A DNA stretch of 40,629 nt, taken from the NCBI GenBank assembly GCA_045225895.1, contig JBGVBT010000016.1:1-40629 (forward strand), in the 5' to 3' direction. Below are positions 7,606-30,240 of the stretch, one piece after another. The notes under the pieces were generated by a model. The model was not told where the DNA came from. It did no database searches and worked only from the letters and a program-made list of their open reading frames with translations. The stretch comes from Sphaerochaetaceae bacterium. GTDB lineage: Bacteria > Spirochaetota > Spirochaetia > Sphaerochaetales > Sphaerochaetaceae. The position numbers and the translations under genes are program-made. Positions within the stretch are counted from its first letter, which is position 1. Each line of letters begins with the position of its first letter.

Positions 7606-7803
7606 GACAGTCTTCCAAACGGTCTTGCGGTCATGTTTATTTGCATGACCGTTCGACCGTTTCATTGTAGAAACGGAAAAGCTTTTTGTGTGAGTTAAAG
7701 GAGGGGTATTCCGTCCAGATTTCACCAGAGATACGGGAGTATACGTCAGGGAAATACAGATAACATGATTGCCACATAAAACAAAGACGGGTTATTATTG
7801 GGT

Positions 7804-8811
7804 ATGCACACTCTGATATCTGTTGTGATTCCAATCTATAATCAGGAGAAATACTTAGGGGAATGTCTTGATTCCCTGTTCCCTCATTGCACAGATGAAG
7901 TGGAAGTGGTTCTGGTCAACGATGGTTCAAAGGACAGAAGCCCTGATATCTGCAGGGAGTATATCAGCAGATATCCGGAGGTTAATGCTAAACTAATAAA
8001 TCAGGAAAACAGCGGTTCTCTCAAAAGCAGAGTCAATGGAGTGCGGAATGCTTCCGGAGATTACATCCAGTTCGTGGATTCGGATGACATTCTTCTTGAA
8101 AACGCATTCGAGATCATCCTTGGGACGCTGCACAGTCATTCTGTTGATTTGCTGCTGTTCAACGCAACTTCAGACCAAAAGACGAAAAAACCGGTTTTCA
8201 ACATCCCTTTGGTCCAGTCCAAAGAACTGACAGGTGATGAAAAGTACCCCGTCTATGAACTGCTTTGTGGAAGTAATGTCCTGAACAACCTTTGGACAAA
8301 GTGCATCAGAAAGGAGCTGTACCAGGAAGCAGGATTGCCCAAGGAGGGGCAACGTCTTACAAATGGTGAAGATCTGTTCCAGATTCTCGATATAGTAGAT
8401 AAGGCAAAGAGTGTTATCTATATTGACTGTGTCCTTTACTTCTACAGGGTCATGACTGACAGCATATCAAGAATCTACAATCCGTACTATTTCGATTCCG
8501 AGAAAACCGTCTGTGCCAAACGGCTTGAGTATGCTGGAAAGTGGAGTAGGAACAAAGAGCTAGTCTCCCTTGTGAAAACGCAGACCTACAAGATTATGAG
8601 AGAGACCGCCAGAAAGGTGCTGATTGCCGACATGTCATGGAAGGAAGTTAAAAAAGAAATGCAGAAACTAAGGGACGACTCCTTCTTCAGAGAATACTAT
8701 TACGATTGTCGGATTGCTCCTGACAACAGATTCCGTATTCTGAAAGCCCCTTATCCGGTCATGCATGCCGCGCGGATACTCCGCAGCATAAAGAAGGGCT
8801 TCAAGAGATGA
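7804..8811 (+). CDS. Family 2 glycosyltransferase
   Basis: MHTLISVVIPIYNQEKYLGECLDSL...VVLVNDGSKDRS...FVDSDD. The track ORF starts at TTG 7798, and I prefer the ATG at 7804. Confidence 0.85.
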   Translation: MHTLISVVIPIYNQEKYLGECLDSLFPHCTDEVEVVLVNDGSKDRSPDICREYISRYPEVNAKLINQENSGSLKSRVNGVRNASGDYIQFVDSDDILLENAFEIILGTLHSHSVDLLLFNATSDQKTKKPVFNIPLVQSKELTGDEKYPVYELLCGSNVLNNLWTKCIRKELYQEAGLPKEGQRLTNGEDLFQILDIVDKAKSVIYIDCVLYFYRVMTDSISRIYNPYYFDSEKTVCAKRLEYAGKWSRNKELVSLVKTQTYKIMRETARKVLIADMSWKEVKKEMQKLRDDSFFREYYYDCRIAPDNRFRILKAPYPVMHAARILRSIKKGFKR

Positions 8812-10349
8812 AGATAGAGAGGACGAGGAATGCTGCCCGAAATGTAGTGTTTGACGGCACGCTGAAAATGTTCAACCTCGCGATGCCGCTGATAATGCGC
8901 CGCATTATTCTCTTTTACCTCGGTGTCAAATATCTTGGTCTCAGCGGGCTTTTCAATTCAATCCTTTCTTTCCTGAATCTTGCGGAACTTGGTGTCGGAA
9001 GCGCCATGATCTTCAGCATGTACAAGCCTATAGCCGAAGATGACACCGATACAATATGCGCCCTTATGCGGTTGTACCGGACATTCTATCGGGTGATCGG
9101 ACTGTTCATAGCAGTTGTCGGGCTGGCGATAACTCCTTTGCTCAGGCGCCTGGTTCACGGCGATGTCCCTGCGGGAATAAACCTGTACATACTCTATTAC
9201 ATGAATCTGGCATCGACGGTGCTGACATATTGGCTGTTTGCCTACAAGAACTGCCTGCTTCATGCCCACCAGAGAACGGATGTCGGAAGCAAGATTACAC
9301 TTGTCATAAACATAATCCTGAACATAGTCAGGGTATTCGTCTTGGTCTTTTTTCAAAGCTATTACTTGTATCTCGGTGCACAGCTTGTCTCTCAGATCAT
9401 CGAGAACATAGTCAAGTCCATTGTGGTTTCCAGAATGTATCCGAACTACAGTCCAAGGGGTAGCCTGAGCAAGGAGAAGGTCAGGGACATAACACACAGG
9501 GTGAGGGATCTGTTTACAGCCAAGTTCTCCGGTGTAATTCTGAATTCTGCGGATACGCTTGTCATCTCGTCTTTTCTTGGTCTTGTTCCTCTTGCTTTGT
9601 TCCAGAACTATTTCTACATCATCAATGCGCTTCGCGGAATCCTTTTCGTTTTCCTTTCCGCCTGCAAGGCGGGAATTGGAAACAGTCTTGTTACGGAAAG
9701 CGTGGAGAAGAACTACTACGATCTGAGGAAGCTCAGTCTTTTGTTCAACTGGATTATCGGTCTTGCCAGTACAATGCTGCTTTGTCTGTATCAGCCGTTC
9801 ATGAGCATCTGGATGGGAGAGGACTACCTTTTGAGTCTCGGATGCATGTTCTGCTTTGTTCTGTACCTGTATGTCTACGAAATAAACAGACTGGTCACAT
9901 TATACAAGGATGCCGCAGGCATCTGGCACAAGGATCGTTTCCGCCCTCTGGTGGCATCGCTCGTGAACCTGGGGCTGAACCTTGCAACGGTTCAATGGCT
10001 CGGGCTGTACGGTGTGGTCCTTTCTACGGTTGTATCCATTGTGTTTGTTGAGTTGCCCTGGCTGCTGCATAACCTCTTCCACGAGGTGTTTCCTTCGGAT
10101 CTGTTGTGGAAGTATCTCAGGGATTTGGTTAAATATGTTGCAGCGACAGGATTGTCGTTCCTTGCATCTTGGAATCTGTGCAATCTGTATCATTTCGGTC
10201 ACTGGCCGACTTTGATTCTGAACGCCATAATCAGCTTCGCTGTCTTCAATCTGGCGTTTTACCTTCTGTTCTTCAGGACAACGCTGTTCAAGGACTCGCT
10301 CCGCATCGTCATCAAAACCATATCGCGGAAGAAAAAAGTCAGTGCATAA
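8808..10349 (+). CDS. Wzx-type polysaccharide flippase (MOP / Polysacc_synt family)
   Basis: 513 aa with about 12-14 TM helices. The N-terminus, RNVVFDGTLKMFNLAMPLIMRRIILFYLGVKYLGLSGLFNSILSFLNLAELGVGSAMIF, is typical of the family. ATGA overlap with the upstream GT2. Confidence 0.8.
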   Translation: MKIERTRNAARNVVFDGTLKMFNLAMPLIMRRIILFYLGVKYLGLSGLFNSILSFLNLAELGVGSAMIFSMYKPIAEDDTDTICALMRLYRTFYRVIGLFIAVVGLAITPLLRRLVHGDVPAGINLYILYYMNLASTVLTYWLFAYKNCLLHAHQRTDVGSKITLVINIILNIVRVFVLVFFQSYYLYLGAQLVSQIIENIVKSIVVSRMYPNYSPRGSLSKEKVRDITHRVRDLFTAKFSGVILNSADTLVISSFLGLVPLALFQNYFYIINALRGILFVFLSACKAGIGNSLVTESVEKNYYDLRKLSLLFNWIIGLASTMLLCLYQPFMSIWMGEDYLLSLGCMFCFVLYLYVYEINRLVTLYKDAAGIWHKDRFRPLVASLVNLGLNLATVQWLGLYGVVLSTVVSIVFVELPWLLHNLFHEVFPSDLLWKYLRDLVKYVAATGLSFLASWNLCNLYHFGHWPTLILNAIISFAVFNLAFYLLFFRTTLFKDSLRIVIKTISRKKKVSA

Positions 10350-10365
10350 ACAGGAGGAGGAAGAT

Positions 10366-11523
10366 ATGCGGGAAAGAATTGTCAAGCTGTGGCGGTTTGC
10401 CTCTGCAATGGTGAAATGGTTCCTTCTTCTGCCGTTAGCCGGAATCAGATACCATGGAAAGCATGTCTGGCTTATCTGCGAGAGGGGAAACGATGCACGT
10501 GACAACGGATATCACATGTTCAGGTACCTTCGTACAAAGCACCCTGAAACAGATGTCTGGTATATAATCACAAAGGATTCAGCGGATCTCCGCAAGGTGT
10601 CGGATCTGGGCAACGTTGTTTTTTTCGGAACAATCAGACACTGGTTGCTCTATATCCGTGCCGAAAAAATCCTCACGGCGTTCGAGCCTCATTTCAGTCC
10701 CAGCGGTAGCTATTCCTTTTACAGATTCATAAGGAAGAGAAACAGGCAGAAGATTATATTCCTGCAGCACGGTGTCATTGCAAACGACCTTCCCCTCTAT
10801 CATCAGGAGAGGTCGGGTTTCGACCTGTTCATCTGCGGAGCGAAACCCGAATACGACTTCATCTCCAGCACATTCAACTACAGAAACGGTGAGGTGCGGT
10901 ACACTGGCCTTGCCAGATTCGATGCACTTCACAATCTGAGTGTGAGACGTCAGCTTCTGATTATGCCTACCTACAGAAAGTGGTTCAGGGAACAGACCGA
11001 ATCGGAAGTGATAAGCAGTGAATATGTCAGGCGCTGGCAGGGTCTGTTGAACAATCCCGGACTGTCAGAGCTTGCTGAGAAGTACAATTATGATGTGGTT
11101 TTCTATCCGCATCAGCTCATGCAGAAATACGTCTCTCTTTTCACGTCTCCGAGCAGAAGAATCGTAGTTGCGGATTACAGACACTACGATGTCCAGCCGC
11201 TTCTCATGGAATCTGCCATGCTTGTCACGGATTATTCCAGCATCCATTTCGATTTCGCCTATATGGGTAAACCTCTTCTGTATTATCAGTTCGATGAGAA
11301 GGAGGTTTTTGAGAAGCAGTTCGGACACGGATATTTCGGATACAGGGAGTCAGGATTCGGTGAGGTTGTTTCGGAGGAAAACAATCTTGTCAATCTGTTG
11401 GAGGGATACTTCATAGACGGGCTCAAGGTCAAACCGTTTTACCGGAAACGTGTTGAAGGATTCTTTCCTCTGCATGATGACCATAACTGTGATCGCATTT
11501 ATGAAGAGATTCTCAGTCTATAG
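10366..11523 (+). CDS. CDP-glycerol glycerophosphotransferase family protein (TagB/TagF-like)
   Basis: VWLICERGNDARDNGYHMFRYLRTKHPE...FLQHGV...FICGAKPEYDF...VVFYPHQ...LVTDYSSIHFDFAYMGKPLLYYQFD. ATG at 10366 is preceded by AGGAGGAGG (10352-10360). The track ORF begins at GTG 10342. Confidence 0.8.
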   Translation: MRERIVKLWRFASAMVKWFLLLPLAGIRYHGKHVWLICERGNDARDNGYHMFRYLRTKHPETDVWYIITKDSADLRKVSDLGNVVFFGTIRHWLLYIRAEKILTAFEPHFSPSGSYSFYRFIRKRNRQKIIFLQHGVIANDLPLYHQERSGFDLFICGAKPEYDFISSTFNYRNGEVRYTGLARFDALHNLSVRRQLLIMPTYRKWFREQTESEVISSEYVRRWQGLLNNPGLSELAEKYNYDVVFYPHQLMQKYVSLFTSPSRRIVVADYRHYDVQPLLMESAMLVTDYSSIHFDFAYMGKPLLYYQFDEKEVFEKQFGHGYFGYRESGFGEVVSEENNLVNLLEGYFIDGLKVKPFYRKRVEGFFPLHDDHNCDRIYEEILSL

Positions 11524-11564
11524 GGTGTATAATGACCCTTGAGGTACACTCGGGAGGCATGCAA

Positions 11565-12590
11565 ATGGTTTTTCCTATCAGCATTAGCGTCATCATGGCC
11601 ACATACAACACTGAGATTCCGATGCTCAAGGAAGCCGTGGATAGTATCCTGAACCAGACATTTGGCGATTTCGAATTCATCATAATAGATGACGGGTCAA
11701 CAAACGACTCTGTTAATTATCTCAAAAGCATTAACGATGAGAGGGTGAGGGTAATCCGAAATACCGAGAATGTCGGAATAACAAAGTCTCTGAATGTAGG
11801 TCTCAGGGAAGCCCGGGGAAAGTATATAGCCCGTATGGACGCAGATGATATCTCTATGCCCGAGCGGTTTGAGATAGAGTTCTCATTTATGGAGAAGCAT
11901 CCGGAGGTGATTGTCTGCGGAGCCAAGATAGGAGTAATAGACGAGAACGGCAATGTTACAAAAAAAGCCAGTAAGTCAAAGACTTCTGAAGACATGGAGA
12001 GCTACCGAGTCAGAATGCTCTTTCAGAACCCTGGACCCATTCATCCAACGGCTTTCATGCGCCATGAGAAACTCATAGAGAACCACATTGCATATGATGA
12101 GAGGCTCAGGTATGCTCAGGACTACGGAATGTGGGAGACAACGAGTCACTTCGGGACTATCGTCACAATTGAGGAAGAGCTTCTGTATCACAGAAGGCAC
12201 GGAAAGCAGATTACAACTGCCAGAAGAGAAGTCCAGATGCAATGTGATAAGATGACACAGAAGAAGATCCTGACTGCGTTGCTGGGGGACGTTTCCGACG
12301 AAGAAGTGGATTTCCACTATGTCCATTCCACAGGATACTTCCCGGATGCGAGAATCTCTCCGGAGGTATCGGATTGGTATGACCGTCTGGCCAGGGCGAA
12401 CAAAAACCGCAGAATCTATGACCAGGGAAAGCTTGAGAAAAGGATTCTGACAATAAAGAAGAACCTGATACGGCAGACAATAAAACTTGACAGAATGACA
12501 GGTTTGGTAAGGATGAAGTTTGTTTTCAGGTATATTCCTTTCTTCCCGGCCTTAAGAACCTGCTTCGGGATTCTCAGGCATCCTGTCTGA
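11565..12590 (+). CDS. Family 2 glycosyltransferase
   Basis: MVFPISISVIMATYNTEIPMLKEAVDSILNQTFGDFEFIIIDDGSTNDS...ARMDADD. GGGAGG at 11552-11557 favours the ATG at 11565. The alternative ATGs at 11532 and 11559 cannot be excluded. Confidence 0.8.
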   Translation: MVFPISISVIMATYNTEIPMLKEAVDSILNQTFGDFEFIIIDDGSTNDSVNYLKSINDERVRVIRNTENVGITKSLNVGLREARGKYIARMDADDISMPERFEIEFSFMEKHPEVIVCGAKIGVIDENGNVTKKASKSKTSEDMESYRVRMLFQNPGPIHPTAFMRHEKLIENHIAYDERLRYAQDYGMWETTSHFGTIVTIEEELLYHRRHGKQITTARREVQMQCDKMTQKKILTALLGDVSDEEVDFHYVHSTGYFPDARISPEVSDWYDRLARANKNRRIYDQGKLEKRILTIKKNLIRQTIKLDRMTGLVRMKFVFRYIPFFPALRTCFGILRHPV

Positions 12591-13653
12591 TCAGAGTCTT
12601 TTCGAGTTTCCTTTTCAGATACACTGCTATAATTGACAGGACAAGACTCATTGCTATGCAAATCGACATTACTATCAAGGCAGGCATTCTAAGCTCATTA
12701 TAAAGAACCGTTCCCATGAATGCGCAACACAACGGTTGATGAATCAGATAGATCACAAGGGATTCCTTACCAAGGAAAACCAGTCTTTTCATTCCGGATT
12801 CGGAGATGGGGAAGAGCCTTTTTTCAAACACTTTTCCCAAAAGAACCATCAGACCTGGGAGCATGGTGTATCCCACACAGTAGACGGCAAATCGGGTCCA
12901 ACCTTCCACATTCAGAGAATTGCCGGAGAAGCCCGAGAAGAACCTTACCCTTACGATTATGTATATCAGGCCGAGGATTCCCCATATCCACGCTAACGTA
13001 TCGGAGAATTTCATATCCGCCATCAGAATTCCCAGACAGAATACCGGAAGATACAGCGATATGTAGGAGAAAAGAAACCACCAATCTCCCAAGGAAATCT
13101 TGTCTCGGAATGCAATACCCGCAAGTCCGATGACAATGAGAAAAATGCAGACAAGTGTTGTGTGTCTGCTGTTTGTCAAAGAATCAAACAGGCATACTAT
13201 GACGGTTATGATTATAAGAACCCACAGGAACCACAGGTGGAATGCCCAAGGGTTGTTTGCTAGAATAGCGGAGGTGATATAAGGAATGAAATCGATTTTG
13301 AAATATCCTGCATCTGACAGAATACTGCTTAAAGAAGTGCTTTTCATTGCCAAAGAGAATGCGACATAGATGAAAAGAGTATAGATTATCCAGTATGGAA
13401 ACTGCATTCTCAGACGTTTTCCAGCAATCTGAAGGGGTATTCTGCCCTTGTTTCTTGACAATCTGTATCCGTAGCCGGCAAGCCAGAAGAACCACGTCAT
13501 ATGGAATATGTAGATACTTCTGTAGAGAGCATCCAAAAAAGGATAAGCCACGCGCATTTCGTCTCTCATGCTGTGCCCTATGAGAACCAGAAGAATGGCC
13601 ACTCCTTTAGAAATGTCTATCCAGACAAGACGTCCGTTCTTCTCTTTTTCCAT
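12574..13653 (-). CDS. Acyltransferase family 3 membrane protein (probable polysaccharide O-acetyltransferase)
   Basis: 359 aa and polytopic. N-terminal RLVWIDISKGVAILLVLIGHS is typical of Acyl_transf_3. It is the last gene of the minus-strand operon. Confidence 0.8.
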   Translation of the reverse strand: MEKEKNGRLVWIDISKGVAILLVLIGHSMRDEMRVAYPFLDALYRSIYIFHMTWFFWLAGYGYRLSRNKGRIPLQIAGKRLRMQFPYWIIYTLFIYVAFSLAMKSTSLSSILSDAGYFKIDFIPYITSAILANNPWAFHLWFLWVLIIITVIVCLFDSLTNSRHTTLVCIFLIVIGLAGIAFRDKISLGDWWFLFSYISLYLPVFCLGILMADMKFSDTLAWIWGILGLIYIIVRVRFFSGFSGNSLNVEGWTRFAVYCVGYTMLPGLMVLLGKVFEKRLFPISESGMKRLVFLGKESLVIYLIHQPLCCAFMGTVLYNELRMPALIVMSICIAMSLVLSIIAVYLKRKLEKTLIRQDA

Positions 13654-13656
13654 AAC

Positions 13657-14568
13657 TCAGTAAATATCCACAACAACCAGTTCAGGAGGATTGTTCACCC
13701 TGATTTTACCGCCGATTCCGCGGCTGACAACAACCCATGTGTTGTTTACTTCGTGCACTCCGTCCGTAAACTGGGGGAAGAATCCCGACACCGAATGGTA
13801 CAGTCCTCCGATGAAGGGAATCACTACTATTCCGCCGTGAAGATGCCCGCAGAGGGCCATATCTATGTCACAGTTCAGCAATGCACCGTCATTGAAGAAG
13901 TACTGCGGATAATGAACAAGAAGGAGCCTGTAGTTGGTAGTCTGCAGATAACGTTGCCAGAATCTCTGGGTATAATCTGCATCCAATGCGTTCGGGTTTG
14001 CGGAAAGACCTCCTATGTCTATGAGGTTTCCGTTGACATTGACGGTCACGTACTTGTTGTGCAGAACATGAACTCCCAGATTCTCCAGATCCACGTTGAC
14101 CGTGCTTGTCTGCTTGACCCTGATGACTTCTTTTTCATGGTTTCCGTAGCAGAAGTAGACAGGAGCCACGTTGACCAGCTGTCTGCAGAGCTCGACAACA
14201 ACGGAGTAGTCGGTCTCATTCATATCAACCATGTCTCCGGTCATTGCAATGATATCCGGTTTAAGACGGATTATCTCGTTGACAAGAACGGAGTTGTTTT
14301 CTCCGTATTCCTTGAGGTGGAGATCCGAAAGCTGGACAATGCGGATCCGGTTGTTTATCTTCTTGTCCTCGATCTCGTAGAACGTGACTACGAATTTCGA
14401 GTTGTCACACAGACGTACCACCGTCAATACGGCCAGTCCGACAATCAGAATGACGATAATCCATCTGATGAGCAGTTTTCTTTTGTGAGGATCTTTAAGA
14501 AAGGAAAGAAAGTGTTTTTTCTGTTTTTCCGAAGCCGGTTTTTCTTCGTTTTTTATTTCTTTATCCAT
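13657..14568 (-). CDS. Membrane-anchored calcineurin-like metallophosphoesterase
   Basis: 303 aa. N-terminal Lys-rich segment then TM helix IIVILIVGLAVLTVV. Motifs are VQLSDLHL, MTGDMVD, YGNHE and CGHLHGG. Confidence 0.85.
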   Translation of the reverse strand: MDKEIKNEEKPASEKQKKHFLSFLKDPHKRKLLIRWIIVILIVGLAVLTVVRLCDNSKFVVTFYEIEDKKINNRIRIVQLSDLHLKEYGENNSVLVNEIIRLKPDIIAMTGDMVDMNETDYSVVVELCRQLVNVAPVYFCYGNHEKEVIRVKQTSTVNVDLENLGVHVLHNKYVTVNVNGNLIDIGGLSANPNALDADYTQRFWQRYLQTTNYRLLLVHYPQYFFNDGALLNCDIDMALCGHLHGGIVVIPFIGGLYHSVSGFFPQFTDGVHEVNNTWVVVSRGIGGKIRVNNPPELVVVDIY

Positions 14569-15857
14569 GAAGATCTCCTATCCGAATCAGGAATTATTTT
14601 TCTTGTCAGAGATTCAGCGAAGGCCGATTTGTCTGCCAGGACCAGAGCCAGAGGCAGAACGTGCCATGCAATCTGAGGACAGTATTTCTCGATTGTATTG
14701 TCAGTCATGAACGTGACGAACATAAGCAGGGTGATTCCGAAATAAACCCGCGCCGCTCTGAGCGAGTATGTTCTCTGAAGGAACGTGTATGTGAAAATGT
14801 ATGTCACGAGACACCAGAGCAGGTTCATCGGCATTCCCAGTTCCACGTAAAGACGCAGTACATCACAGTGAAGACGCCTGTTGCCCGTCACCTCCATGAC
14901 TTCAAGAATCTTGGAAACCCTTCCGAAGCCCAGCCCCATATAGGTGGGACTTATCGTGTAATACGGTTTTACATGACCGTACAGACGTTTTCTTCCCATC
15001 AGGTTGATTCCCAGGGAATCGGTGATTTCGAACCAGATATCGGTCCTGATCAGAATTACGAACACTATGCTGATGACAATGAGAAGCACCCCGATTGCCA
15101 CGGAATAATTGATCTGATTCCTCTTGCTGAAACGCTTTGCAATGAAGATATAGATGATTCCAACAGCTAGAGCTGGAAACAGAATCCTCTTCAGTCCAGT
15201 GATGAAGTAGAACCCCAGAGCCAGGATATAGAACCTGCGCCAATGCTCGTCCTGTCCATCGACTATGTAATAAACAAGAAGGATTCCTATACCGAAAGTA
15301 AGATCTTGGACTTCCAGTTTTCTTGAGATCACATTGTCTACAGAACCGAGGGACATGATGAACTGGGAGAAACCCGTGATTGTAGTCATGACCCCGAATC
15401 TGCGCATGACATCCAGAAGAATCAGGGTATTAGCCAGAATGAAGCCCTGTGCCGTGTATTCTATGGCCTTTTTCCCGAACAATACTCCTGGGAAGACCAG
15501 CATTACCAGAAGCAGAAGCTGGTAGAGGACCAGTGATGAACCTCGCAAGATTGAAGCAAGTGTTTCCCTTTGCCATACCCATAGAGCCACGGACCAAACA
15601 ACAATAATCAGATTCGGAATCATCTGAAAAGCCATTACATTCACTGAAGTGTTCAAACGGGATGTGTTTCCGGAAACAAAAATCCATGCTATGCCGAACA
15701 CGATGATTGCTCCATAGGCGAACTGAGTGACATACCATGGAACTTCGACCAAATGGAAGTATCCTTTGAGGTTCGATACGGCGATGAGGCTGGCATATAT
15801 CAATCCTGCAAACCAACCTGCGTACCGTTTTTCCGACTTCAGCGAAGACTGTCCCAT
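14553..15857 (-). CDS. Wzy-type polysaccharide polymerase / O-antigen ligase family membrane protein
   Basis: 434 aa with about 10-12 TM helices and a larger loop near residues 290-340. Its position in a Wzx/PCP locus supports the call. The call rests on topology and context rather than on a strict motif. Confidence 0.65.
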   Translation of the reverse strand: MGQSSLKSEKRYAGWFAGLIYASLIAVSNLKGYFHLVEVPWYVTQFAYGAIIVFGIAWIFVSGNTSRLNTSVNVMAFQMIPNLIIVVWSVALWVWQRETLASILRGSSLVLYQLLLLVMLVFPGVLFGKKAIEYTAQGFILANTLILLDVMRRFGVMTTITGFSQFIMSLGSVDNVISRKLEVQDLTFGIGILLVYYIVDGQDEHWRRFYILALGFYFITGLKRILFPALAVGIIYIFIAKRFSKRNQINYSVAIGVLLIVISIVFVILIRTDIWFEITDSLGINLMGRKRLYGHVKPYYTISPTYMGLGFGRVSKILEVMEVTGNRRLHCDVLRLYVELGMPMNLLWCLVTYIFTYTFLQRTYSLRAARVYFGITLLMFVTFMTDNTIEKYCPQIAWHVLPLALVLADKSAFAESLTRKIIPDSDRRSSWIKK

Positions 15858-15858
15858 C

Positions 15859-17736
15859 TTATTCTCCGCTGATGCCCAGGGTTGCTTCTTCTTCGGCTAC
15901 TACGACATTTTCTATTCTCAGCTGGGACATTGCCATGGAAACCAGTTCCCTGATTGTCCTGGGGCTGTTCTCCGTTGCCGTTGCATTTGCAAGCTTGTAT
16001 CTGATTACAACTCCGTGCTCTCCTCGGTTGAAGTCGGCGACAGACCTCTTCAGAACATTGCTGAAGAACGTTGCACGGGCACCGTCACAGCTCGGGAACA
16101 GACCCATGAATGTGAGGCTTCCGTTGTATCCGACAAAACCGAACTGCTCGGCACTGTCCCTGATGTGGGTTGCGAACACTCGCAGAACCTCGTTTCCGGC
16201 ATCACGTCCGACAACGGCATTGATGTCGTTCATGTTGGTAAGGGAAATGACAACGACGGTGAACGGAACAGGCAGCATCTTGTTTCCGTACTGCTTTATC
16301 TCGTTGTCGCATCTCATGCGGTTCGGCAGATCGGTTGTGGTATCCGTATAGAAATGGTACTCAACGAAGTCAAGGCTTCTTCCGAGAACCACTGCAACGG
16401 TCACTCCGAATATGAAGAACACCACGACGATCAGGGCTGTGTATAGCTTGACGTTCACCGTTTCCTTGACGTTGACCGTGGAACGGACCATGAGGTTTTT
16501 CATGACCTCTCTCTGAATGTGCTCCGAGGCTGTTACGCTCATCAGCTTGTCCAGAACCCTGAGTCTTCCCTCGATGAATCTGATAAGTTCCTCCACCTGT
16601 CTGACCGCATCCTGATCAACGGAATAGATTGTCCTGTTCCTGTCATCCTTGAAAGCTGAGAATACATAGTCGCAGTATTCGTTGTCCTCCTGCCGTTCCT
16701 CGATTGCGGCTCTGAGGGTAATATATCGCTGAAGGACTGTATCGTATGTGTTACTGGCCTTTGATACATTCTCGTCGGAATTCTTGTATACGGACCTGAC
16801 AACATAGTTGTTTCCGGAAGACTGAAGCAGTCCCGTCTCCGTGGTGTCGCTGCCCCAGTGGTAGAGCATAGTGTCCTCGTTCTTCTTTTCATAGCTCGAG
16901 AGCATGTTCTCGGCAACCTCAAGAGCTTCCGTATAGTTCTTGATGGCGAGGGTGTTCTGGTTCTTGCGGTACTGATAACGTGAAATGAGAAGATCCGGAT
17001 TGGAAGTCACGTGATTCTTGAGGATCAGTGAATACAACGACGGGAGATAAATCGTGTAGATGAGGTTGTATTCGTTGTAGAGGTCCTGGAAACTGTAACC
17101 GGAAGCAGAGGATCTGAAGATCGTACCCGTGTCGATTATGCTTTTCAGATAATCTCTGTCGGACTGTATGAAGCTGTCTATGATTTCAGCCCATTCGATA
17201 TAGTCGTAATTCAGGTTCTGAAGGGACTCGACGCTGTTCGGTACCTGCGAGACAGACATGTATTTCGTTGAGTAGGTGTTCAGGAAACTGTCGACGATTG
17301 CCTCTACCACTTCCTGGGCATTAGATGCGCTTTTATGCTTTGCAGACTCGTAGGAAACAATGTACTTCGTAGGGAAGAACTCATAACTGTTTCCCTTTGC
17401 CCACTGAGCGGCCTGACGGGCCGAATCCTCGTCGGAAATCACAGCGGAGATGCTTGTCCTTTTTCTGACGGAATCGACACTGTCGTTCCGGTTGATGCTT
17501 TCAAGTGCATTCCATATGACGGCAGATGACTTGATTTCCTGCACGTCAATAGAATCTCCGGTGGGGTAGAGGCCGTCTTTTGCCTCCGGATTAGTGAATT
17601 CGATAAGGGTCTGGGCTTTATAGGTCTGATTTGAAGAGACGGCAAGATAGAAGACAATTCCGCTGATGATTGAGAAGACTGCAATAAGCCACCACCACTT
17701 GCGGATGTATCTGGACAGTTGGAATTCTTTCATCAT
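15859..17736 (-). CDS. Polysaccharide co-polymerase (Wzz/PCP)-like protein fused to a C-terminal degenerate GGDEF-like cytoplasmic domain
   Basis: 625 aa. Wzz-type N-terminus is RKWWWLIAVFSIISGIVFYLAV..YKAQTLIEF, followed by a long extracytoplasmic segment. The second TM helix is LYTALIVVVFFIFGVTVAVVLG. The 173-aa tail reads TDLPNR...VVVISLTNMNDINAVVGRDAGNEVL...GYNGSLTFMGLF (NGSLT at nt 16111-16125). ATGA overlap with the upstream gene. Confidence 0.75.
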   Translation of the reverse strand: MMKEFQLSRYIRKWWWLIAVFSIISGIVFYLAVSSNQTYKAQTLIEFTNPEAKDGLYPTGDSIDVQEIKSSAVIWNALESINRNDSVDSVRKRTSISAVISDEDSARQAAQWAKGNSYEFFPTKYIVSYESAKHKSASNAQEVVEAIVDSFLNTYSTKYMSVSQVPNSVESLQNLNYDYIEWAEIIDSFIQSDRDYLKSIIDTGTIFRSSASGYSFQDLYNEYNLIYTIYLPSLYSLILKNHVTSNPDLLISRYQYRKNQNTLAIKNYTEALEVAENMLSSYEKKNEDTMLYHWGSDTTETGLLQSSGNNYVVRSVYKNSDENVSKASNTYDTVLQRYITLRAAIEERQEDNEYCDYVFSAFKDDRNRTIYSVDQDAVRQVEELIRFIEGRLRVLDKLMSVTASEHIQREVMKNLMVRSTVNVKETVNVKLYTALIVVVFFIFGVTVAVVLGRSLDFVEYHFYTDTTTDLPNRMRCDNEIKQYGNKMLPVPFTVVVISLTNMNDINAVVGRDAGNEVLRVFATHIRDSAEQFGFVGYNGSLTFMGLFPSCDGARATFFSNVLKRSVADFNRGEHGVVIRYKLANATATENSPRTIRELVSMAMSQLRIENVVVAEEEATLGISGE

Positions 17737-19058
17737 ACGTCCTTCTCCTCCTCTTTCCTAGCCATTGCGACTGTCACCTCGACCACACAGGCCAGAAGTC
17801 CGACAATCAGCGCCAGAACGGCATTGCGTTTGACTTTGTATCCGCCCATCACGCTGTCTGTCGCAATGCTGTATGAGATGGAGCTCTTGTAACGGGACTC
17901 CTCGTAATCGTGGACGACGTACAGGATTCTCTGGATCAGGGCATTCAGGCTCTGTTCCATCTCCTGTATCATGGAATTCGCGGTATCATGTTTCTTCTGA
18001 TCCTTGTCTGCAAGGTATGTTCTTGCTATCGCACCGTTGATGACCTTCAGCTCCTGTTCATGCGCCTCAAGCGTTTTCGCCAGCGCCATCGATGAATCCG
18101 TCAGAAGATCCATGCCGGTTTCCGTTCTGGTCATCTGCATTCCGTTCACTTCGTCGTACATGGGAATCATCACAAAGGTGATCATTGCCTTGTCGTACAT
18201 TCCGAGGGCATCCTGGTTTATGGTGTACATCTCGCTGTCCTTCTTGGAGGTCTGACTGAGAAGGAACCGGCGGTATTCGAGCTTTCCTCTGTATTTCATT
18301 GGATCTCGGAAAAGATTGTTGTTCGTTATGTAGGCGGTGAATTTGTTCAGGTATATGTCTCTGAATGCCGCCACGGAATCCTGGAGGGATCTGAAAGTCT
18401 CTCCTTCCGTCCTGTAGTTATATGTTCCGCTCTCGGTCTGCATTGTCTCGAGATAGGCTATGATGTTGTTGATCTTGACTTCCATTATGTCGGCGAATTC
18501 CAGATACTCCCAGGAATCGGTTTCCGACCAGTCGATGTCCAGAACGCCGTCGTTTCTCCCGTAATGGTCGAGGAAATAGTTCTTGTAGCACTGCATGACC
18601 AGATTCAGCATGGATCTTGCGCTGATTCTCTCAGGAAGATATGTGTTCGTCATTTCCACCGAGTACTCAGTGGCAATATACATTTTCTTGGGATCCTGTG
18701 AGCCTGCGGAGCTGATGGAGATGCAGTTCTGAAGCTGATTCGTGCTGAGTTCACCCTTAAGTCCCGCATCTTCGATTGCCTGAGAAAGGACCTCGTCGCT
18801 CATCAGTTCGTTTATGTTGAATCTGGAACCGTTGGGATTCAGGCCCTCATAGGCGAGTTCGTAGCGCAGCCCCAGAGTGGCCTTCGCGGAATCTTCGGCA
18901 TGCAGTCCCGTGTACACACACAGAATCACGAATGCCATCAGAATTAAAAACAGTATCCAGAATTTATGGCGCCAGATCATAATCAACGCAAAGGATAATT
19001 TGTTTTCCCTGCCTCGGTTCCTATTTCCAGTCTTCATTGACATCCTCTCCGCTCTCAT
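17733..19058 (-). CDS. Polysaccharide co-polymerase (Wzz/PCP)-like bitopic membrane protein, paralogous in layout to the N-terminal part of the next gene
   Basis: 441 aa. N-terminal TM helix is FWILFLILMAFVILCVYTGL and C-terminal TM helix is AVLALIVGLLACVVEVTVAMA. About 370 aa of coil-rich sequence lies between them. ATGA overlap with the upstream GT. Confidence 0.6.
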   Translation of the reverse strand: MRAERMSMKTGNRNRGRENKLSFALIMIWRHKFWILFLILMAFVILCVYTGLHAEDSAKATLGLRYELAYEGLNPNGSRFNINELMSDEVLSQAIEDAGLKGELSTNQLQNCISISSAGSQDPKKMYIATEYSVEMTNTYLPERISARSMLNLVMQCYKNYFLDHYGRNDGVLDIDWSETDSWEYLEFADIMEVKINNIIAYLETMQTESGTYNYRTEGETFRSLQDSVAAFRDIYLNKFTAYITNNNLFRDPMKYRGKLEYRRFLLSQTSKKDSEMYTINQDALGMYDKAMITFVMIPMYDEVNGMQMTRTETGMDLLTDSSMALAKTLEAHEQELKVINGAIARTYLADKDQKKHDTANSMIQEMEQSLNALIQRILYVVHDYEESRYKSSISYSIATDSVMGGYKVKRNAVLALIVGLLACVVEVTVAMARKEEEKDV

Positions 19059-20092
19059 ATAAGCAGGGCATTGAACTGCCCCATTACAACGTCTGTGGAA
19101 AAGCGTGACATGCTCTCTTCGCAGCCGTTCTGTATATTTTTATATAAATTCTTATCCGTGTAAAGTTCGTATAGGATTTCGGCGGCTCTGTCGTTGTCCC
19201 TGAACGGATAGATGAATCCGTTCCTGTGGTCCTCAATCACCTCGCTGTTGTACAGCCAGTCGTTGGCGATAATCGGGATTCTTGCACTGAATGCATCGAG
19301 GGCTGTTCCTGCAAAGCATTCACATGCAAAATAAGTGGGGAAAAGGATTGCGAAGCAGCTTCTAAGGGTCTCCACCGTCTGGCTGGACTCCCTGGCCCCC
19401 ATGTATCTGGCAATTCCGCCGGATTTTTCCAGAGCCTCGTCGAGTTCGGGTTTGAACGAGTCGTACATCTTTCCATAGATCTCAAGGTTGAACAGATTCT
19501 TTCCCGCCAGGGCGTTTGCCTTCTTCACAATCTCTATAGCATCGAGGATTCCCTTGTCCTTTGTGACACGGGAGTAGGTGCAGACCCTTACCGGCTCATC
19601 CTTCCAGTGGTCGAAGTCCACAGCCGGAACATAGTCCCTGCAGTTTGGCAGGTACTGGGCTTTTGCAATACCAAGCTCCCTGAGCTCGTCCCTGAGCTTC
19701 TTGGACTGTACATGTGTTCCGTCGAAGGACGCGATGTGCTTGATGAGCGAGTGCTTTTTCCTGAGTACCTCGGCCAGGTCACCGCCTGTGACTATGTACT
19801 GGATGTGGCACTTGTAGATCTTGTTCATGATGGCCGTCACCGGTGCGAATATCTCTATGTTCTGACCCGGCATGAACAGCACGTTCTGACACTGGCTGAG
19901 CGCTCTTCTGATGTTCCCCAAGACGGAGAACGGATGCTTCTTTGCACTGTCTATGTTTGCAAAGAGGACCTGGTCCTCTCCGTATCTGTCGGAGAACCAT
20001 TTTCGCAGAGTGCGGATCTTCACCGCCTGGCCTGTGGCAAAGCGGGCTCCTGTTCCTGCAACACCTATGATTCCAAGTTTCTTCTTCTCCAC
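19055..20092 (-). CDS. Family 1 (GT4-type) glycosyltransferase, tandem paralog A
   Basis: 345 aa. MEKKKLGIIGVAGTGARFATGQAVKIRTL...RYGEDQV...FPTYFACECFAGTALDAFSARIPIIANDWLYNSEVIEDHRNGFIYPF. Confidence 0.8.
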   Translation of the reverse strand: MEKKKLGIIGVAGTGARFATGQAVKIRTLRKWFSDRYGEDQVLFANIDSAKKHPFSVLGNIRRALSQCQNVLFMPGQNIEIFAPVTAIMNKIYKCHIQYIVTGGDLAEVLRKKHSLIKHIASFDGTHVQSKKLRDELRELGIAKAQYLPNCRDYVPAVDFDHWKDEPVRVCTYSRVTKDKGILDAIEIVKKANALAGKNLFNLEIYGKMYDSFKPELDEALEKSGGIARYMGARESSQTVETLRSCFAILFPTYFACECFAGTALDAFSARIPIIANDWLYNSEVIEDHRNGFIYPFRDNDRAAEILYELYTDKNLYKNIQNGCEESMSRFSTDVVMGQFNALLI

Positions 20093-20102
20093 GGTCTGCT
20101 TC

Positions 20103-21134
20103 CTATATCATTTTGTCGGCAAGCTGCTGAAGGACAACGTCCGAGCTGTATTTCACGGCGCTCTCCTTGCAACCTTCCTGAATCCTTTCATACAGTCCGG
20201 GATCCCTGTAAAGAGATACAAGCATTCCGGCAGCTTCATCCGTATTCCTGAACGGATACAGGAATCCGTCCTCTCCGTTCCTGATGACCTCGGAATTGAA
20301 CTTCCAGTCGTTGGCGATTATCGGAGTTCGTGACAGGAATGCATCCAGCACCGTTCCCGCAAAACACTCGCCTTCATAATACGTGGGGAAGAGGAGGGCG
20401 AACTGGCTCTTCAGTGTTTCCAGGGTCTGGTCGGCGTCTCTTGTGCCGGCATAGGCCATCACATCCCTGTTCTCCTCACACAGTCTTTCAAAATCATCCC
20501 TGTAAGATCCATCGACTGCGCCGAACACATCCAGGAAAAAGACATCCGTTCCAAGAATGGCATTCGCTTTCCTGACGGTCTGTACGGCATCAGCCATGCC
20601 TTTTGTCTGTGTCACTCTGGAATATGTGCAGACATGGAGGGGTTCCTTCCTGTCCTTGTCAGGATTCACCTCCACATAATCCCTGCAGTTTGGAAGATAC
20701 CAGCTGCTGTCTATGCCTATGGCCTTCAGGTCCTCAACCAGACTTTTTGTCTCGGCGCAGACTCCGTAGAACTTCTTTGTGGCACGCCTGATATGACCGT
20801 GTTTCTTCAGGAAGTCCGCAAGCCATCCGCCGATGACGATGAAGAACGTTCTTTTTCTGTAGAACCTGTTCAGTGCCGAGACCAGAGAAGGGAATACCTT
20901 GACCCCGTGAGGAGCCGGGAAGATCATCACGTTGGAACAGTCTTTCATGGCCTTTGCAATGCTGCGGACCAGACGTACCGGATGCTTCTTCCAGCCGTAG
21001 GTATTGACTATCTCTATCTGGTCTTCCCCGTATCGGCGCTTCATCCAGTCCGTTATGAAGACTGTCTTCACGGCCTGTCCAGTGAGGTACTTTGGTCCTG
21101 TTCCGTACTGTCCTATTACAGCAAGCTTCTTCAT
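20103..21134 (-). CDS. Family 1 (GT4-type) glycosyltransferase, tandem paralog B
   Basis: 343 aa. MKKLAVIGQYGTGPKYLTGQAVKTVFI...RYGEDQI...FPTYYEGECFAGTVLDAFLSRTPIIANDWKFNSEVIRNGEDGFLYPF. It is colinear with paralog A. Confidence 0.8.
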   Translation of the reverse strand: MKKLAVIGQYGTGPKYLTGQAVKTVFITDWMKRRYGEDQIEIVNTYGWKKHPVRLVRSIAKAMKDCSNVMIFPAPHGVKVFPSLVSALNRFYRKRTFFIVIGGWLADFLKKHGHIRRATKKFYGVCAETKSLVEDLKAIGIDSSWYLPNCRDYVEVNPDKDRKEPLHVCTYSRVTQTKGMADAVQTVRKANAILGTDVFFLDVFGAVDGSYRDDFERLCEENRDVMAYAGTRDADQTLETLKSQFALLFPTYYEGECFAGTVLDAFLSRTPIIANDWKFNSEVIRNGEDGFLYPFRNTDEAAGMLVSLYRDPGLYERIQEGCKESAVKYSSDVVLQQLADKMI

Positions 21135-22321
21135 CTGGCACCTTTGAGGGATTCTTCCCAGACTGTGTTGTACTCGACTTTCTCTCCGCGGTACACACGG
21201 ATCATCTGCTCAACTGCAAGATCCCAGCTGTACTTGCCTGTGATGTAGTCCGAGGCGTTTGACTTGTAGTTTGCCACGATATCTGGATTGTCCAGAAGGT
21301 TCTGGAGCTTTCCTCTGAGAACGTTGACGTTTCCTTTCGGGAAAGTCTCTGCATGGTCGCCGACCACCTCGGTGTTCTCCGGGATGTCGCTAACCAGGTC
21401 GCAGCATCCGTAGGACATGGATTCCAGCAGCGTGTTGGCCATGCCCTCCAGGTTGCTGGGCAGAAGGAACATGTATGTGTTGCTGTAAAGCTCTGCGGTG
21501 AGCGTTCCCTTGACCTGGCCGATGAACATTATGCGGCCGTCTCCCTGCGCCATCTCTGTAAGTTTCTTGTAATAGCCGTGGTTGCTGTCTCCGCCTGCTA
21601 TCACAAGCTTCTTGTCTGTGTTGCAGTCCCTGAAAGCCTCGATCAGGTAGTGGAGGCCCTTTTCCGGCTCAACGCGGCCCAAGGAGAGGATGTAGCTGTC
21701 CTTCTCAAGACCCCACTTCTCCCTGATCTCGTTCGCCGCCAGAATCTTCGGTTTCACAATTCCATTTGCAAAGCAGAGGACGTCCTTTCCGTACTTCTCT
21801 TTGACATAGCGCTTCATGTTCTGGGAAAGAACAAGACAGGCATCCGCACGCTTTACGGCGAGCCTTTCGCCTTTTTCCAGATACCATTTTGCAAAACGGC
21901 CCCATTTGTCGCGCTGGCTGTCAAAGCCGTGGATGGATGCCACGCAGCGCTGGCCGAAGAACTTGGCCAGGCCTATCATCACACATGGTCCGGATGCCCT
22001 GTAGCTTATGACATCGTAGTGTTGGAATATCGCATGTATGGTTGCAAGGAAGGAGTAGATAAGCACTCCCAGGCCTCCGTTGGGGGTGGGGACCGTGATG
22101 ATCCGGACTCCCTTGTATTCCTTGAGTTTCTTCTGGTTATACTTCTTGCCGTTTATATTGTCGCTTCCGCGGTTGTATACGGTCACGGAGTGTCCCAGGG
22201 CAACCATCCTCACGGCGTGCTCCTCGACACCTTTTTCTATTCCGCCTTCGTTGGAAGGGATTCTCTTGTGTCCGATGATGGCGATCTTCAGCGATTTCTT
22301 TGTGGAAAGGTCCTTCCTCAT
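21131..22321 (-). CDS. Family 1 glycosyltransferase with a DUF1972-like N-terminus (WchF/RgpA-like)
   Basis: 396 aa. KIAIIGHKRIPSNEGGIEKGVEEHAVRMVALGHSVTVYNR...LLPSNLEGMANTLLESMSYGCCDLVSDIPENTEVVG. One-nt TGATG overlap with the priming transferase. Confidence 0.8.
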   Translation of the reverse strand: MRKDLSTKKSLKIAIIGHKRIPSNEGGIEKGVEEHAVRMVALGHSVTVYNRGSDNINGKKYNQKKLKEYKGVRIITVPTPNGGLGVLIYSFLATIHAIFQHYDVISYRASGPCVMIGLAKFFGQRCVASIHGFDSQRDKWGRFAKWYLEKGERLAVKRADACLVLSQNMKRYVKEKYGKDVLCFANGIVKPKILAANEIREKWGLEKDSYILSLGRVEPEKGLHYLIEAFRDCNTDKKLVIAGGDSNHGYYKKLTEMAQGDGRIMFIGQVKGTLTAELYSNTYMFLLPSNLEGMANTLLESMSYGCCDLVSDIPENTEVVGDHAETFPKGNVNVLRGKLQNLLDNPDIVANYKSNASDYITGKYSWDLAVEQMIRVYRGEKVEYNTVWEESLKGAR

Positions 22322-23766
22322 CAGACGGCTCCCTCGTGTTTGAACAGGACGACTATGGTCTTGAAGATGATGCTCAGGTCAAGACCCAGTGACCAGTGCT
22401 CGATGTAGTAGCGGTCCAGGGCCACGATCTCGTCGAAATCGGTGATCTTGCTTCTTCCGCTGACCTGCCACATTCCGGTGAGACCCGGACGGGTGCTCAT
22501 CCTGATTCTGTGGCTCAGGCTGTATTTGCTCCATTCGTCTTTCGTCGGCGGGCGGGTTCCTATAAGGCTCATGTCGCCCTTCAGGACATTGAAGAACTGC
22601 GGGAACTCGTCCAGGCTGGTCTTGCGGATGAAGTTTCCGATGCCCTTTGGCTTTCCGTTCTTGTCCTTTTTCTCGCTTCCTATGATTCTCGGGTCATCGT
22701 CGATCTTGAACATCAGATTGCTGGACATCTTGTTCTGCTTCTCAAGCTCCGCCTTGCGCTCTTCGGCATCCAGATACATGCTGCGGAACTTGTACATCTT
22801 GAAGATCTTTCCGTTCTTTCCGATCCTCTCCTGGGCGAAGAATACAGGGCCCGGTGATTTCCTCTTGATGGCCGGAGCGATGAAGATGTAAAGGATTCCG
22901 GTGAAGAAGCAGCCGAAGATGCCGGCCACGATGTCGAACAGACGTTTGATGGCAAGCGACAGTGCGGATGCGAACTTGACCGATGACGTAAGGACATCGA
23001 AATAGCCGATCCTGTGGATTTCGGTGAAGTTCTCCATGAAGGAGTTCGTGTAGTTAACAGTGATTCCCATGTTCATGAAGATGTCGATGTACTCCCTGGG
23101 CATTGGCATGTCATCCGGCTGGACCACGAGGATCTCGTCGATGTATGTGTGGTTGATTTCCTGAAGCGACTCATCGTTCAGATGGGTCACGGGAACCTGC
23201 ATGTCTTCGAACTGGCCGGGGATGATGGGATCCATCGTGCATATCTGGGAGATGAAGAAGTCCTTGATCGTGTTCGCATTGAACAGCTTCTCATAGGTCT
23301 TTCTGACCATCGAAGAGGATGTCAGAAGAAGGAATGCACGTTTCTGGTGTGACTTTCTTGATGCGAAGACGCGCTTCTTGTTCAGAGTGCGTCCTATTAG
23401 GTCGAGAACTACAAAGCTGCCCGTTACGGAAATGAGAAGCAGACGCGATGCCTCGTCAGTTGTCTTTGTGATGAAGAAGTAGAGCAGGGCAAGAAGCGCG
23501 ATTCCGATGGCGAACTGCAGGATTTTCCAGAATTCAAGGAAGAAGCTCCGTCTGACTATGGTGAAATAGTACCCTGAGAAAGGCATGACAGCCAGCTGGC
23601 ACATGGACAGTACAGCCGCCTGGAAACGGAGGGAGTGATCTATGTACGGAAACCATACGCCTTTCCTTATGAAACTGACCAGCATCAGCGCAAGCTGAAG
23701 ACAGACGATGTCAATGAGCATGAAGTCCCAATGTCTCATCCATTCCTGATTCATTTGTTTCTGCAC
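22321..23766 (-). CDS. Polyprenyl-phosphate glycosyl-1-phosphate transferase (CpsE/WbaP-type priming enzyme)
   Basis: 481 aa with 4-5 N-terminal TM helices. C-terminal domain is KRLFDIVAGIFGCFFTGILYIFIAPAIKRKSPGPVFFAQERIGKNGKIFKMYKFRSM...DPRI...LDEFPQFFNVLKGDMSLIGTRPP. GTG start at 23766 has GGGAGGG 7 nt upstream. An alternative ATG lies at 23754. Confidence 0.9.
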   Translation of the reverse strand: MQKQMNQEWMRHWDFMLIDIVCLQLALMLVSFIRKGVWFPYIDHSLRFQAAVLSMCQLAVMPFSGYYFTIVRRSFFLEFWKILQFAIGIALLALLYFFITKTTDEASRLLLISVTGSFVVLDLIGRTLNKKRVFASRKSHQKRAFLLLTSSSMVRKTYEKLFNANTIKDFFISQICTMDPIIPGQFEDMQVPVTHLNDESLQEINHTYIDEILVVQPDDMPMPREYIDIFMNMGITVNYTNSFMENFTEIHRIGYFDVLTSSVKFASALSLAIKRLFDIVAGIFGCFFTGILYIFIAPAIKRKSPGPVFFAQERIGKNGKIFKMYKFRSMYLDAEERKAELEKQNKMSSNLMFKIDDDPRIIGSEKKDKNGKPKGIGNFIRKTSLDEFPQFFNVLKGDMSLIGTRPPTKDEWSKYSLSHRIRMSTRPGLTGMWQVSGRSKITDFDEIVALDRYYIEHWSLGLDLSIIFKTIVVLFKHEGAV

Positions 23767-23792: not shown

Positions 23793-23821
23793 ATTTTATA
23801 TCTCGTATTATCTGCTGTCAA
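23793..23821 (-). promoter_or_regulatory. Near-consensus sigma70-type promoter for the 9-gene minus-strand polysaccharide operon
   Basis: Read on the minus strand: TTGACA (23821-23816), 17-nt spacer, TAAAAT (23798-23793). It sits about 27 nt upstream of the GTG start. Confidence 0.55.
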
Positions 23822-26496: not shown

Positions 26497-26509
26497 CAGG
26501 GGGTGGATT

Positions 26510-28612: not shown

Positions 28613-28626
28613 TCCGGCAGTTTTGA

Positions 28627-30240
<1,614 letters not shown>

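Follow-up and report, generated by a model that had tools for sequence, protein, structure and literature searches.

The window analysed here comprises 40,629 nucleotides (positions 1-40,629) of contig JBGVBT010000016.1 from a Sphaerochaetaceae bacterium (assembly GCA_045225895.1). Its minus strand carries an exopolysaccharide operon of tightly packed genes, encoding in order a priming phosphoglycosyl transferase, three glycosyltransferases, a 441-aa bitopic protein, a 625-aa protein, a 434-aa polytopic protein, a metallophosphoesterase and an acyltransferase (table 1). Our subject is the 625-aa protein, in which an ectodomain resembling those of polysaccharide co-polymerases (PCPs) is joined to a cytoplasmic GGDEF domain whose catalytic motifs have been replaced. 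The 441-aa protein is a distant, tail-less paralogue: BLASTP aligns it with the ectodomain of the 625-aa protein (E = 2e-8, 18% identity over 273 aa), hydropathy places its transmembrane segments at 34-52 and 414-432, and its gene overlaps the 625-aa gene by ATGA. The gene for the 434-aa protein begins one nucleotide past the stop codon of the 625-aa gene, and the junctions on both sides are predicted to be translationally coupled. The 434-aa protein is probably a Wzy-type polymerase; it has no Pfam match itself, and Wzy_C (PF04932) is matched by its orthologue in one related locus (L050) and by its counterparts in two others (L045 and L047).

Hydropathy analysis gives the 625-aa protein exactly two transmembrane segments (TM1 and TM2; residues 17-35 and 434-452), and its AlphaFold model (mean predicted local distance difference test score, pLDDT, 81.5) has helices at 4-35 and 429-463. 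The peptide preceding TM1 is basic (K3, R9, R12 and K13), which places the N-terminus and residues 453-625 in the cytoplasm and residues 36-428 outside. A sequence-only reading of this DNA had put TM1 at W14-V33 and TM2 at L431-G452 and had assigned the last 173 residues to the cytoplasm, and on both points the analyses agree with it. In the family alignment, the N-terminal region has two invariant residues, R9 and Y10, with F5, Q6 and W14-16 nearly invariant; around TM2 the invariant residues are S419, N428, Y432, F440, F441, G444, G452 and R453.

The homology of the tail to GGDEF domains, previously aligned by eye, is borne out by profile and by fold. The tail matches Pfam PF00990 over residues 463-603 (E = 6e-12, 46.1 bits against a cutoff of 23.8), as do 34/34 family members, and a profile built from 34 homologues reaches solved cyclases in a search of Protein Data Bank (PDB) sequences, with E down to 1e-10. 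In the AlphaFold model the tail has a pLDDT of mostly 81-91 per ten-residue block, and Foldseek superposes it on GGDEF structures with TM-scores of 0.7-0.78 and root-mean-square deviations (rmsd) of 2-3.5 Å. The matches include 5euh (0.78, rmsd 2.0 Å), 3hva (0.76) and 3ign (0.73), and LapD and FimX are represented by their degenerate GGDEF domains (3pjw and 3hva).

Alignment to the solved cyclases 3icl, 4urs, 3ign and 6eib fixed the register of the motifs. The metal-ligand DxD is replaced by S498-L-T500 and GHxxGD by G510-RDAG-N515, as the sequence-only reading had it. The GG(D/E)EF motif is likewise replaced, by G539-S-L-T-F543 following a near-invariant Y537-N538; the earlier placement at NGSLT (from N538, nt 16111-16125) was one residue off. 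At the I-site position the protein has E530-Q-F-G533, confirming the absence of RxxD, and the guanine-binding Asp, expected nine residues after N472, is K481, a position that varies within the family. We extended the comparison to 122 aligned tails, comprising the window protein, representatives at ≤50% identity and genome orthologues. None of the 122 has GG[DE]EF, RxxD at the I-site position, or both Asp residues of DxD. A candidate I-site elsewhere in the tail, R475-C-D477 (RxD), occurs in some members and is not conserved, and the possibility that an active GGDEF survives in distant members as a local supply of cyclic di-GMP (c-di-GMP) was rejected on the same count (0/122).

The tail has nevertheless been retained under constraint. 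Sixteen positions are conserved in at least 80% of the 122 tails (D456, Y460, D465, N472, R473, D477, L488, N506, G510, R511, G514, Y537, N538, F543, R596 and L598), and the substituted residues stay conserved down to 27% identity. The tail was better conserved than the ectodomain in 8/8 pairwise comparisons, and its ratio of non-synonymous to synonymous substitution rates (dN/dS) against the closest orthologues is 0.03-0.05, indicating strong purifying selection. This selection, together with the higher conservation, argues that the tail is a pseudo-enzyme domain with a function, rather than a relic. It is a genuine GGDEF fold that is unable to act as a diguanylate cyclase and has no I-site.

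Table 1. Features of the exopolysaccharide locus, with positions in the window.
Feature	Position	Strand	Basis or remark
Gene of the 625-aa PCP-like protein with dead GGDEF tail	15859..17736	-	Open reading frame, Pfam, structure model
Cytoplasmic N-terminal peptide (MMKEFQLSRYIRK) and TM1, residues 1-35	17632..17736	-	Conservation, hydropathy
Ectodomain, residues 36-428 (~390 aa): small alpha/beta base and very long helices	16453..17631	-	Structure models
TM2, residues 429-452, after S419...N428-V-K-L-Y432	16381..16452	-	Hydropathy, alignment
Cytoplasmic tail, residues 453-625 (173 aa), catalytically dead GGDEF	15862..16380	-	Pfam, profile, fold
Metal-ligand DxD-equivalent, S498-L-T500	16237..16245	-	Cyclase alignments
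I-site-equivalent position, E530-Q-F-G533, without RxxD	16138..16149	-	Cyclase alignments
GG(D/E)EF-equivalent, G539-S-L-T-F543, after near-invariant Y537-N538	16108..16122	-	Cyclase alignments
Tail-less bitopic paralogue, 441 aa	17733..19058	-	BLASTP, hydropathy, junction sequence
434-aa polytopic membrane protein, probably Wzy-type polymerase	14553..15857	-	Matches of orthologue and counterparts
Membrane-anchored calcineurin-type metallophosphoesterase, predicted outward-facing	13657..14568	-	Pfam, hydropathy
Priming phosphoglycosyl transferase (22321-23766) and three GT1/GT4 glycosyltransferases	19055..23766	-	Profile matches (see text)
Acyltransferase_3, last operon gene	12574..13653	-	Pfam E = 1e-21; found in closer loci
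Promoter-like TTGACA-17-TAAAAT upstream of priming transferase	23793..23821	-	Consensus match only; regional site count not above shuffled controls
513-aa polytopic protein, probably Wzx flippase	8808..10349	+	Divergent half of locus; at least 8 transmembrane segments

A genome scan identified 44 species-level loci with a gene of this kind (PCP-dGGDEF). The closest are rumen metagenome-assembled genomes (MAGs) labelled Spirochaetales, at 78-92% identity; more distant, at 27-59%, are many Clostridia. The family is plentiful among Clostridia from the rumen and gut and among MAGs with a Spirochaetales label. The Clostridia at 27-59% include the cultured species Pseudoflavonifractor phocaeensis and Lawsonibacter asaccharolyticus, so that experiments are possible. 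The tail-less paralogue lies immediately upstream in 44/44 loci, and with the PCP-dGGDEF gene, a Wzy_C-type polymerase and a metallophosphoesterase, the last two nearby, it makes up a four-gene core, around which the glycosyltransferases vary. PCP genes are expected beside wzy and wzx, and both kinds of neighbour were found: the Wzy_C-type gene in the 44 loci and Polysacc_synt flippases among the annotated ones. Two natural fusions reinforce the functional links among the core proteins. One (P0114) joins PCP, dead GGDEF, a further transmembrane helix and the metallophosphoesterase, and the extra helix before the phosphoesterase supports an outward-facing enzyme; the other (P0119) joins two PCP-like modules. 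The eleven loci L001-L011, all from ruminants, share the whole operon with the window at 55-92% protein identity and come from MAGs labelled Spirochaetales, Ruminococcaceae, Oscillospiraceae, Clostridiales and Erysipelotrichaceae, suggesting either that the cluster has moved horizontally or that the MAG labels are unreliable.

Searching with a profile of the ectodomain alone gave 1,259 representative clusters at E ≤ 1e-3, and the tail types were sorted among the best 150. About 75 of these carry a dead GGDEF tail, about 40 are tail-less, finishing in a short charged cytoplasmic peptide, and six carry an EAL domain. The tail-less relatives, of ~455 aa, are not simply the upstream paralogue, as 41/41 score higher on the PCP-GGDEF ectodomain profile. 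The six EAL tails match Pfam with E = 1e-20 to 1e-59, and their genes sit in the same core of Wzy_C polymerase, unannotated paralogue, PCP-EAL and metallophosphoesterase. Most are themselves degenerate: the second Asp of DDFG is missing from four of them and the Glu of EGVE from four, and only P0190 has the full catalytic set. The framework of the binding pocket is kept in all six. On these sequences, the cytoplasmic position is a slot repeatedly filled by c-di-GMP-family domains. The N-terminal peptide differs along the same lines. Across the dead-GGDEF clade, the motif M-K/R-x-F-Q-L-x-R-Y-L-R-x-W-W-W at residues 1-13 (17698-17736, minus strand) is almost invariant, and the EAL-tailed and tail-less relatives differ from it; the peptide may therefore co-vary with the tail and contact it.

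The search with the full-length model was swamped by GGDEF matches, and the ectodomain was examined by modelling residues 1-455 alone (pLDDT 80). The models show long helices at 247-295, 330-362 and 375-414, giving the topology of a PCP, with two transmembrane segments around a large, largely helical outside domain. The ten best PDB fold matches in Foldseek are all Wzc or WzzE, at low TM-scores, with full-length WzzE (8p3p) among the top ones. Of 34 members, 29 give a weak Pfam match to Wzz in a corresponding N-terminal position (best E = 7e-5), relatives score 16.9-23.7 bits against Wzz, and three of the 34 have weak GNVR matches. The classical N-terminal motif of PCPs is retained in the relatives with an EAL tail or no tail, and the dead-GGDEF clade has a form derived from it. 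Matches to Pfam HOCHOB at residues 327-384, found in 21/34 members and all sub-threshold, were rejected as noise from coiled-coil composition. Four independent lines, namely the recurrent weak Wzz matches, the fold matches, the motif in relatives and the gene context, point to a divergent PCP. The sequence-only reading had assigned the PCP/Wzz layout outright; it stands for topology, the recurrent weak Wzz matches, the best fold matches and context, and it fails at the Pfam threshold and the proline motif. At most, the protein would represent a diverged offshoot of the PCP superfamily.

Domain scans of the window and of the annotated contexts L045-L050 found no BY-tyrosine kinase (BY-kinase), LCP or PilZ protein, and the fused or adjacent BY-kinase that marks PCP-2a and PCP-2b systems, with its Walker A/B motifs and Tyr cluster, is absent from both. 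PCP-1 proteins have no kinase. The earlier statement that the tail stands where a BY-kinase is expected is thus correct about the missing kinase and overstated as to the expectation, given kinase-free PCP-1 proteins and the tail-less members of this family. The window does encode c-di-GMP enzymes, one HD-GYP and two GGDEF proteins as had been reported, with the HD, GYP and GGDEF/AGDEF motifs all present. The HD-GYP protein (1114-2484, plus strand) has HD at residue 320, GYP at 381 and two transmembrane segments; of the GGDEF proteins, one (38875-40533) has GGDEF and the other (2753-3907) the AGDEF variant, in RYAGDEF. The HD-GYP phosphodiesterase lies directly upstream of the AGDEF protein, which has five transmembrane segments, and the two (together 1114-3907, plus strand) may be a paired c-di-GMP turnover unit.

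We propose that the 625-aa protein is a co-polymerase-like subunit of a Wzx/Wzy-type exopolysaccharide machine. It would probably assemble in a ring-like manner with the tail-less paralogue encoded directly upstream, and act beside the Wzy_C polymerase and the outward-facing metallophosphoesterase. The tail would be a conserved regulatory input module reporting the c-di-GMP state of the cell, either by binding c-di-GMP at a non-I-site surface around the reshaped former active site (N472-R473, R511, Y537-N538 and R596) or by docking a c-di-GMP enzyme. TM2 and the long helices of the ectodomain would relay this signal, switching polymerisation or chain length, and the tail would thereby take over the job done in classical systems by the BY-kinase phosphorylation cycle. 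A regulatory, c-di-GMP-linked tail is suggested by the conserved new set of residues, the swapping with EAL domains, the c-di-GMP enzymes of the genome and the precedent of PssE and YdaK. The combination of a divergent co-polymerase with a c-di-GMP-responsive gate is the reading we favour, tentatively, at a little under an even chance.

Several observations weigh against this proposal. The Pfam Wzz match of the protein itself (PF02706, residues 11-67) scores 14.7 bits (E = 0.04), below the cutoff of 25.5. There is no Pro in residues 405-433 and the proline-rich motif before TM2 is absent; the family consensus there is S-T-V-N-V-x-E-x-x-N-V-K-L-Y, and Pro occurs only in the most divergent member (P0070). 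The Wzc and WzzE fold matches, with E = 1.2e-4 to 1.4e-2, have TM-scores of only 0.14-0.23 and very large rmsd, and residues 1-450 match no PDB entry by sequence or by family profile, so that no solved PCP was found in this way. As for the ligand, no member has the RxxD that every characterised degenerate GGDEF receptor in exopolysaccharide systems needs. With the guanine-binding Asp not conserved and the metal and phosphate ligands all gone, no known mode of nucleotide binding is preserved. Since tail-less members exist, the core function does not depend on the tail. Neither a c-di-GMP riboswitch nor any other Rfam family was found in the window. Conserved linkage to diguanylate cyclase or HD-GYP genes was rejected, since only one of the 44 loci has an adjacent c-di-GMP enzyme: in a Clostridiales MAG (L012), an HD-GYP homologue with 40% identity to that of the window lies directly downstream of the PCP-dGGDEF gene (+1855, minus strand).

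The main rival reading is that the dead GGDEF domain senses no c-di-GMP and is a nucleotide-independent scaffold for dimerisation or oligomerisation and docking, setting the stoichiometry or stability of a co-polymerase ring, or holding the priming transferase or glycosyltransferases at the complex. Every known nucleotide-contacting residue except N472 is lost, the tail is optional in the family, and a new tail surface is strongly conserved. The fold matches include the GGDEF domains of LapD and FimX (see above), degenerate domains that reportedly bind no nucleotide. A generic scaffold is harder to reconcile with a tail that is swapped specifically for EAL, another c-di-GMP-family domain, and not for generic oligomerisation domains, and the invariance of the former active-site hairpin (Y537-N538) and of N472-R473 seems to us to resemble a pocket more than an interface. 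We regard the scaffold as unlikely but credible. Alternatively, the remodelled cleft of the former active site might sense some other nucleotide or small molecule, for example GTP, pGpG, (p)ppGpp or a nucleotide-sugar. The cleft keeps its general architecture and the Asn that contacts the base (N472), and structures of PleD with (p)ppGpp bound to the GGDEF protein (9g85 and 9g86) are among the fold matches. The cleft has, however, no phosphate or metal ligands and no guanine-specifying Asp, its residue set is without precedent, and the EAL-tailed siblings indicate c-di-GMP specifically, all of which makes a different ligand improbable.

The remaining alternatives concern the protein as a whole and its history. 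A transmembrane-sensor-transmembrane-GGDEF arrangement is the commonest layout of membrane diguanylate cyclases, and the 625-aa protein could in principle be no co-polymerase but a catalysis-dead signalling protein of this type, with a ligand-sensing ectodomain, that lies in a polysaccharide operon by chance. This would suit the sub-threshold Wzz match, and helical sensor domains of chemoreceptors, such as McpS (2yfb), do appear among the lower-ranked fold matches of the ectodomain. The ten best matches are nevertheless co-polymerases, a tail-less paralogue always adjoins the gene, tail-less orthologues exist, relatives retain the PCP N-terminal motif, and the linkage to a Wzy_C polymerase is invariant. 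The operon also holds no other co-polymerase candidate. We therefore think such a sensor protein quite improbable. That the tail is a decaying, functionless relic of a once-active cyclase would fit the loss of all the catalytic motifs; it is effectively refuted by the dN/dS values and by a tail better conserved than the ectodomain, with the same substituted residues held to 27% identity, and we give it hardly any credence.

Returning to the gated co-polymerase, the closest analogues by overall organization are the PCP-2 proteins. PCP-2a proteins (Wzc) have a fused BY-kinase, and PCP-2b proteins (CpsC/YwqC) recruit a separate one. The PCP-2b systems (CpsC/CpsD of Streptococcus, CapA/CapB of Staphylococcus and YwqC/YwqD of Bacillus) are likewise bitopic with a large ectodomain, encoded in a Wzx/Wzy operon beside the polymerase, and the tail-less relatives in our family have a short charged cytoplasmic end like that of CpsC; relatives also share the N-terminal motif. 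In contrast to PCP-2b, the operon of the 625-aa protein has no gene for a BY-kinase or phosphatase, the ectodomain is approximately twice as long, the proline motif before TM2 is missing and the Wzz match is sub-threshold; the protein also has the 173-aa dead GGDEF domain and is always paired with a paralogue. Wzc of E. coli and Klebsiella (7nhr, 9r62 and 9r68) provides the best structural matches to the ectodomain, at TM-scores of only 0.14-0.23, and has the same order of TM1, ectodomain, TM2 and fused cytoplasmic regulatory domain. However, that domain in Wzc is a Walker-type tyrosine autokinase and not a dead GGDEF, and no outer-membrane partner of the Wza type was seen for the 625-aa protein. 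PCP-1 proteins (WzzB, WzzE and FepE) also have two transmembrane segments, an alpha/beta base with long helices and an association with Wzy. They differ from the 625-aa protein in being shorter, lacking a cytoplasmic domain, scoring above the Pfam Wzz threshold and having the proline motif. By analogy, the 625-aa protein most resembles a PCP-2a or PCP-2b protein in which the kinase module has been replaced.

For the tail, the comparison is with PelD of Pseudomonas, PssE of Listeria and YdaK of Bacillus, each a membrane-anchored dead GGDEF protein from a polysaccharide operon. These three bind c-di-GMP through RxxD, the motif missing from all 122 tails here: PssE does so with a Kd of 0.79 µM, and the R202A and D205A mutants of YdaK are inactive. 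Their membrane parts are polytopic or GAF-linked, unlike a co-polymerase, and they serve synthase-type and not Wzx/Wzy pathways. A second parallel is with LapD and FimX, whose GGDEF domains match the fold of the tail; most of the sibling EAL tails are degenerate, as is that of LapD. LapD offers a functional analogy, in that its periplasmic output domain is governed, across the membrane, by a degenerate domain of the c-di-GMP family in the cytoplasm. LapD combines HAMP, GGDEF and EAL domains with a protease-sequestering output, whereas here a single GGDEF or EAL domain is joined to a co-polymerase-like ectodomain. The placement of the tail is thus most like that in PelD, PssE and YdaK, and the predicted coupling of a degenerate domain across the membrane most like that in LapD and FimX.

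In public database records, members of the family are named only 'GGDEF domain-containing protein', and in the open-access full-text literature we found no description of a PCP/Wzz protein fused to GGDEF or EAL, in keeping with the earlier suggestion that the architecture is uncharacterised. The architecture is at the same time widespread, and its interest lies chiefly in the second-messenger input to Wzy-dependent polymerisation that it suggests. Post-translational control of polysaccharide synthesis by c-di-GMP is established in synthase-type systems, through PilZ domains (BcsA and Alg44), through the I-site (PelD, PssE and YdaK) and in NfrB. For Wzx/Wzy pathways, the generally held view is that BY-kinases exert control at the co-polymerase. 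These could be the first co-polymerases under second-messenger control, with c-di-GMP or a related nucleotide binding the tail by a new, non-I-site mode to gate Wzy-dependent polymerisation or chain length directly across the membrane, the degenerate EAL tail binding the nucleotide in the siblings, and the BY-kinase cycle replaced in a widespread exopolysaccharide system of anaerobes of the gut and rumen. We consider this fuller version rather doubtful. If true, a GGDEF or EAL input to a co-polymerase-like family would connect the c-di-GMP and BY-kinase fields. The family would also be a tractable case for asking how a cytoplasmic signal alters polymerisation outside the membrane, and a conserved dead GGDEF domain without an I-site could reveal a new mode of ligand or partner binding for a very common domain.

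Among the other genes of the locus, the priming transferase matches Bac_transf (E = 1e-60) and TIGR03025 (323 bits), and the glycosyltransferases match Glycos_transf_1. The metallophosphoesterase matches Pfam Metallophos (E = 1e-14) and is YaeI-like, with a Lys-rich N-terminus followed by a single transmembrane segment (33-51). Its conservation in the module is as tight as that of the co-polymerase pair, and candidate substrates are the polymer linked to undecaprenyl diphosphate or phosphodiester-linked substituents. A divergent half-locus (7798-12590, plus strand) encodes a GT2 glycosyltransferase, the Wzx-like 513-aa protein, a TagF-like CDP-glycerol glycerophosphotransferase and another GT2. 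The 513-aa protein has no Pfam match itself, and Polysacc_synt is matched by its orthologues and counterparts. Glycerol-phosphate may be part of the polymer, and the metallophosphoesterase could be connected with it.

Directly upstream of the operon, a LysR-family regulator (23881-24756, minus strand), whose best NCBIfam match is AlsR/CidR-like and below the cutoff, may be the transcriptional regulator of the exopolysaccharide operon. Its gene is divergent from a block encoding asparagine synthase, type III glutamine synthetase and CTP synthase (24907-30240, plus strand). Finally, two antisense open reading frames (15727-16446, 239 aa, and 15872-16351, 159 aa, both plus strand) overlie the coding region of the GGDEF tail and probably arise mechanically from the codon composition of the sense strand's gene.

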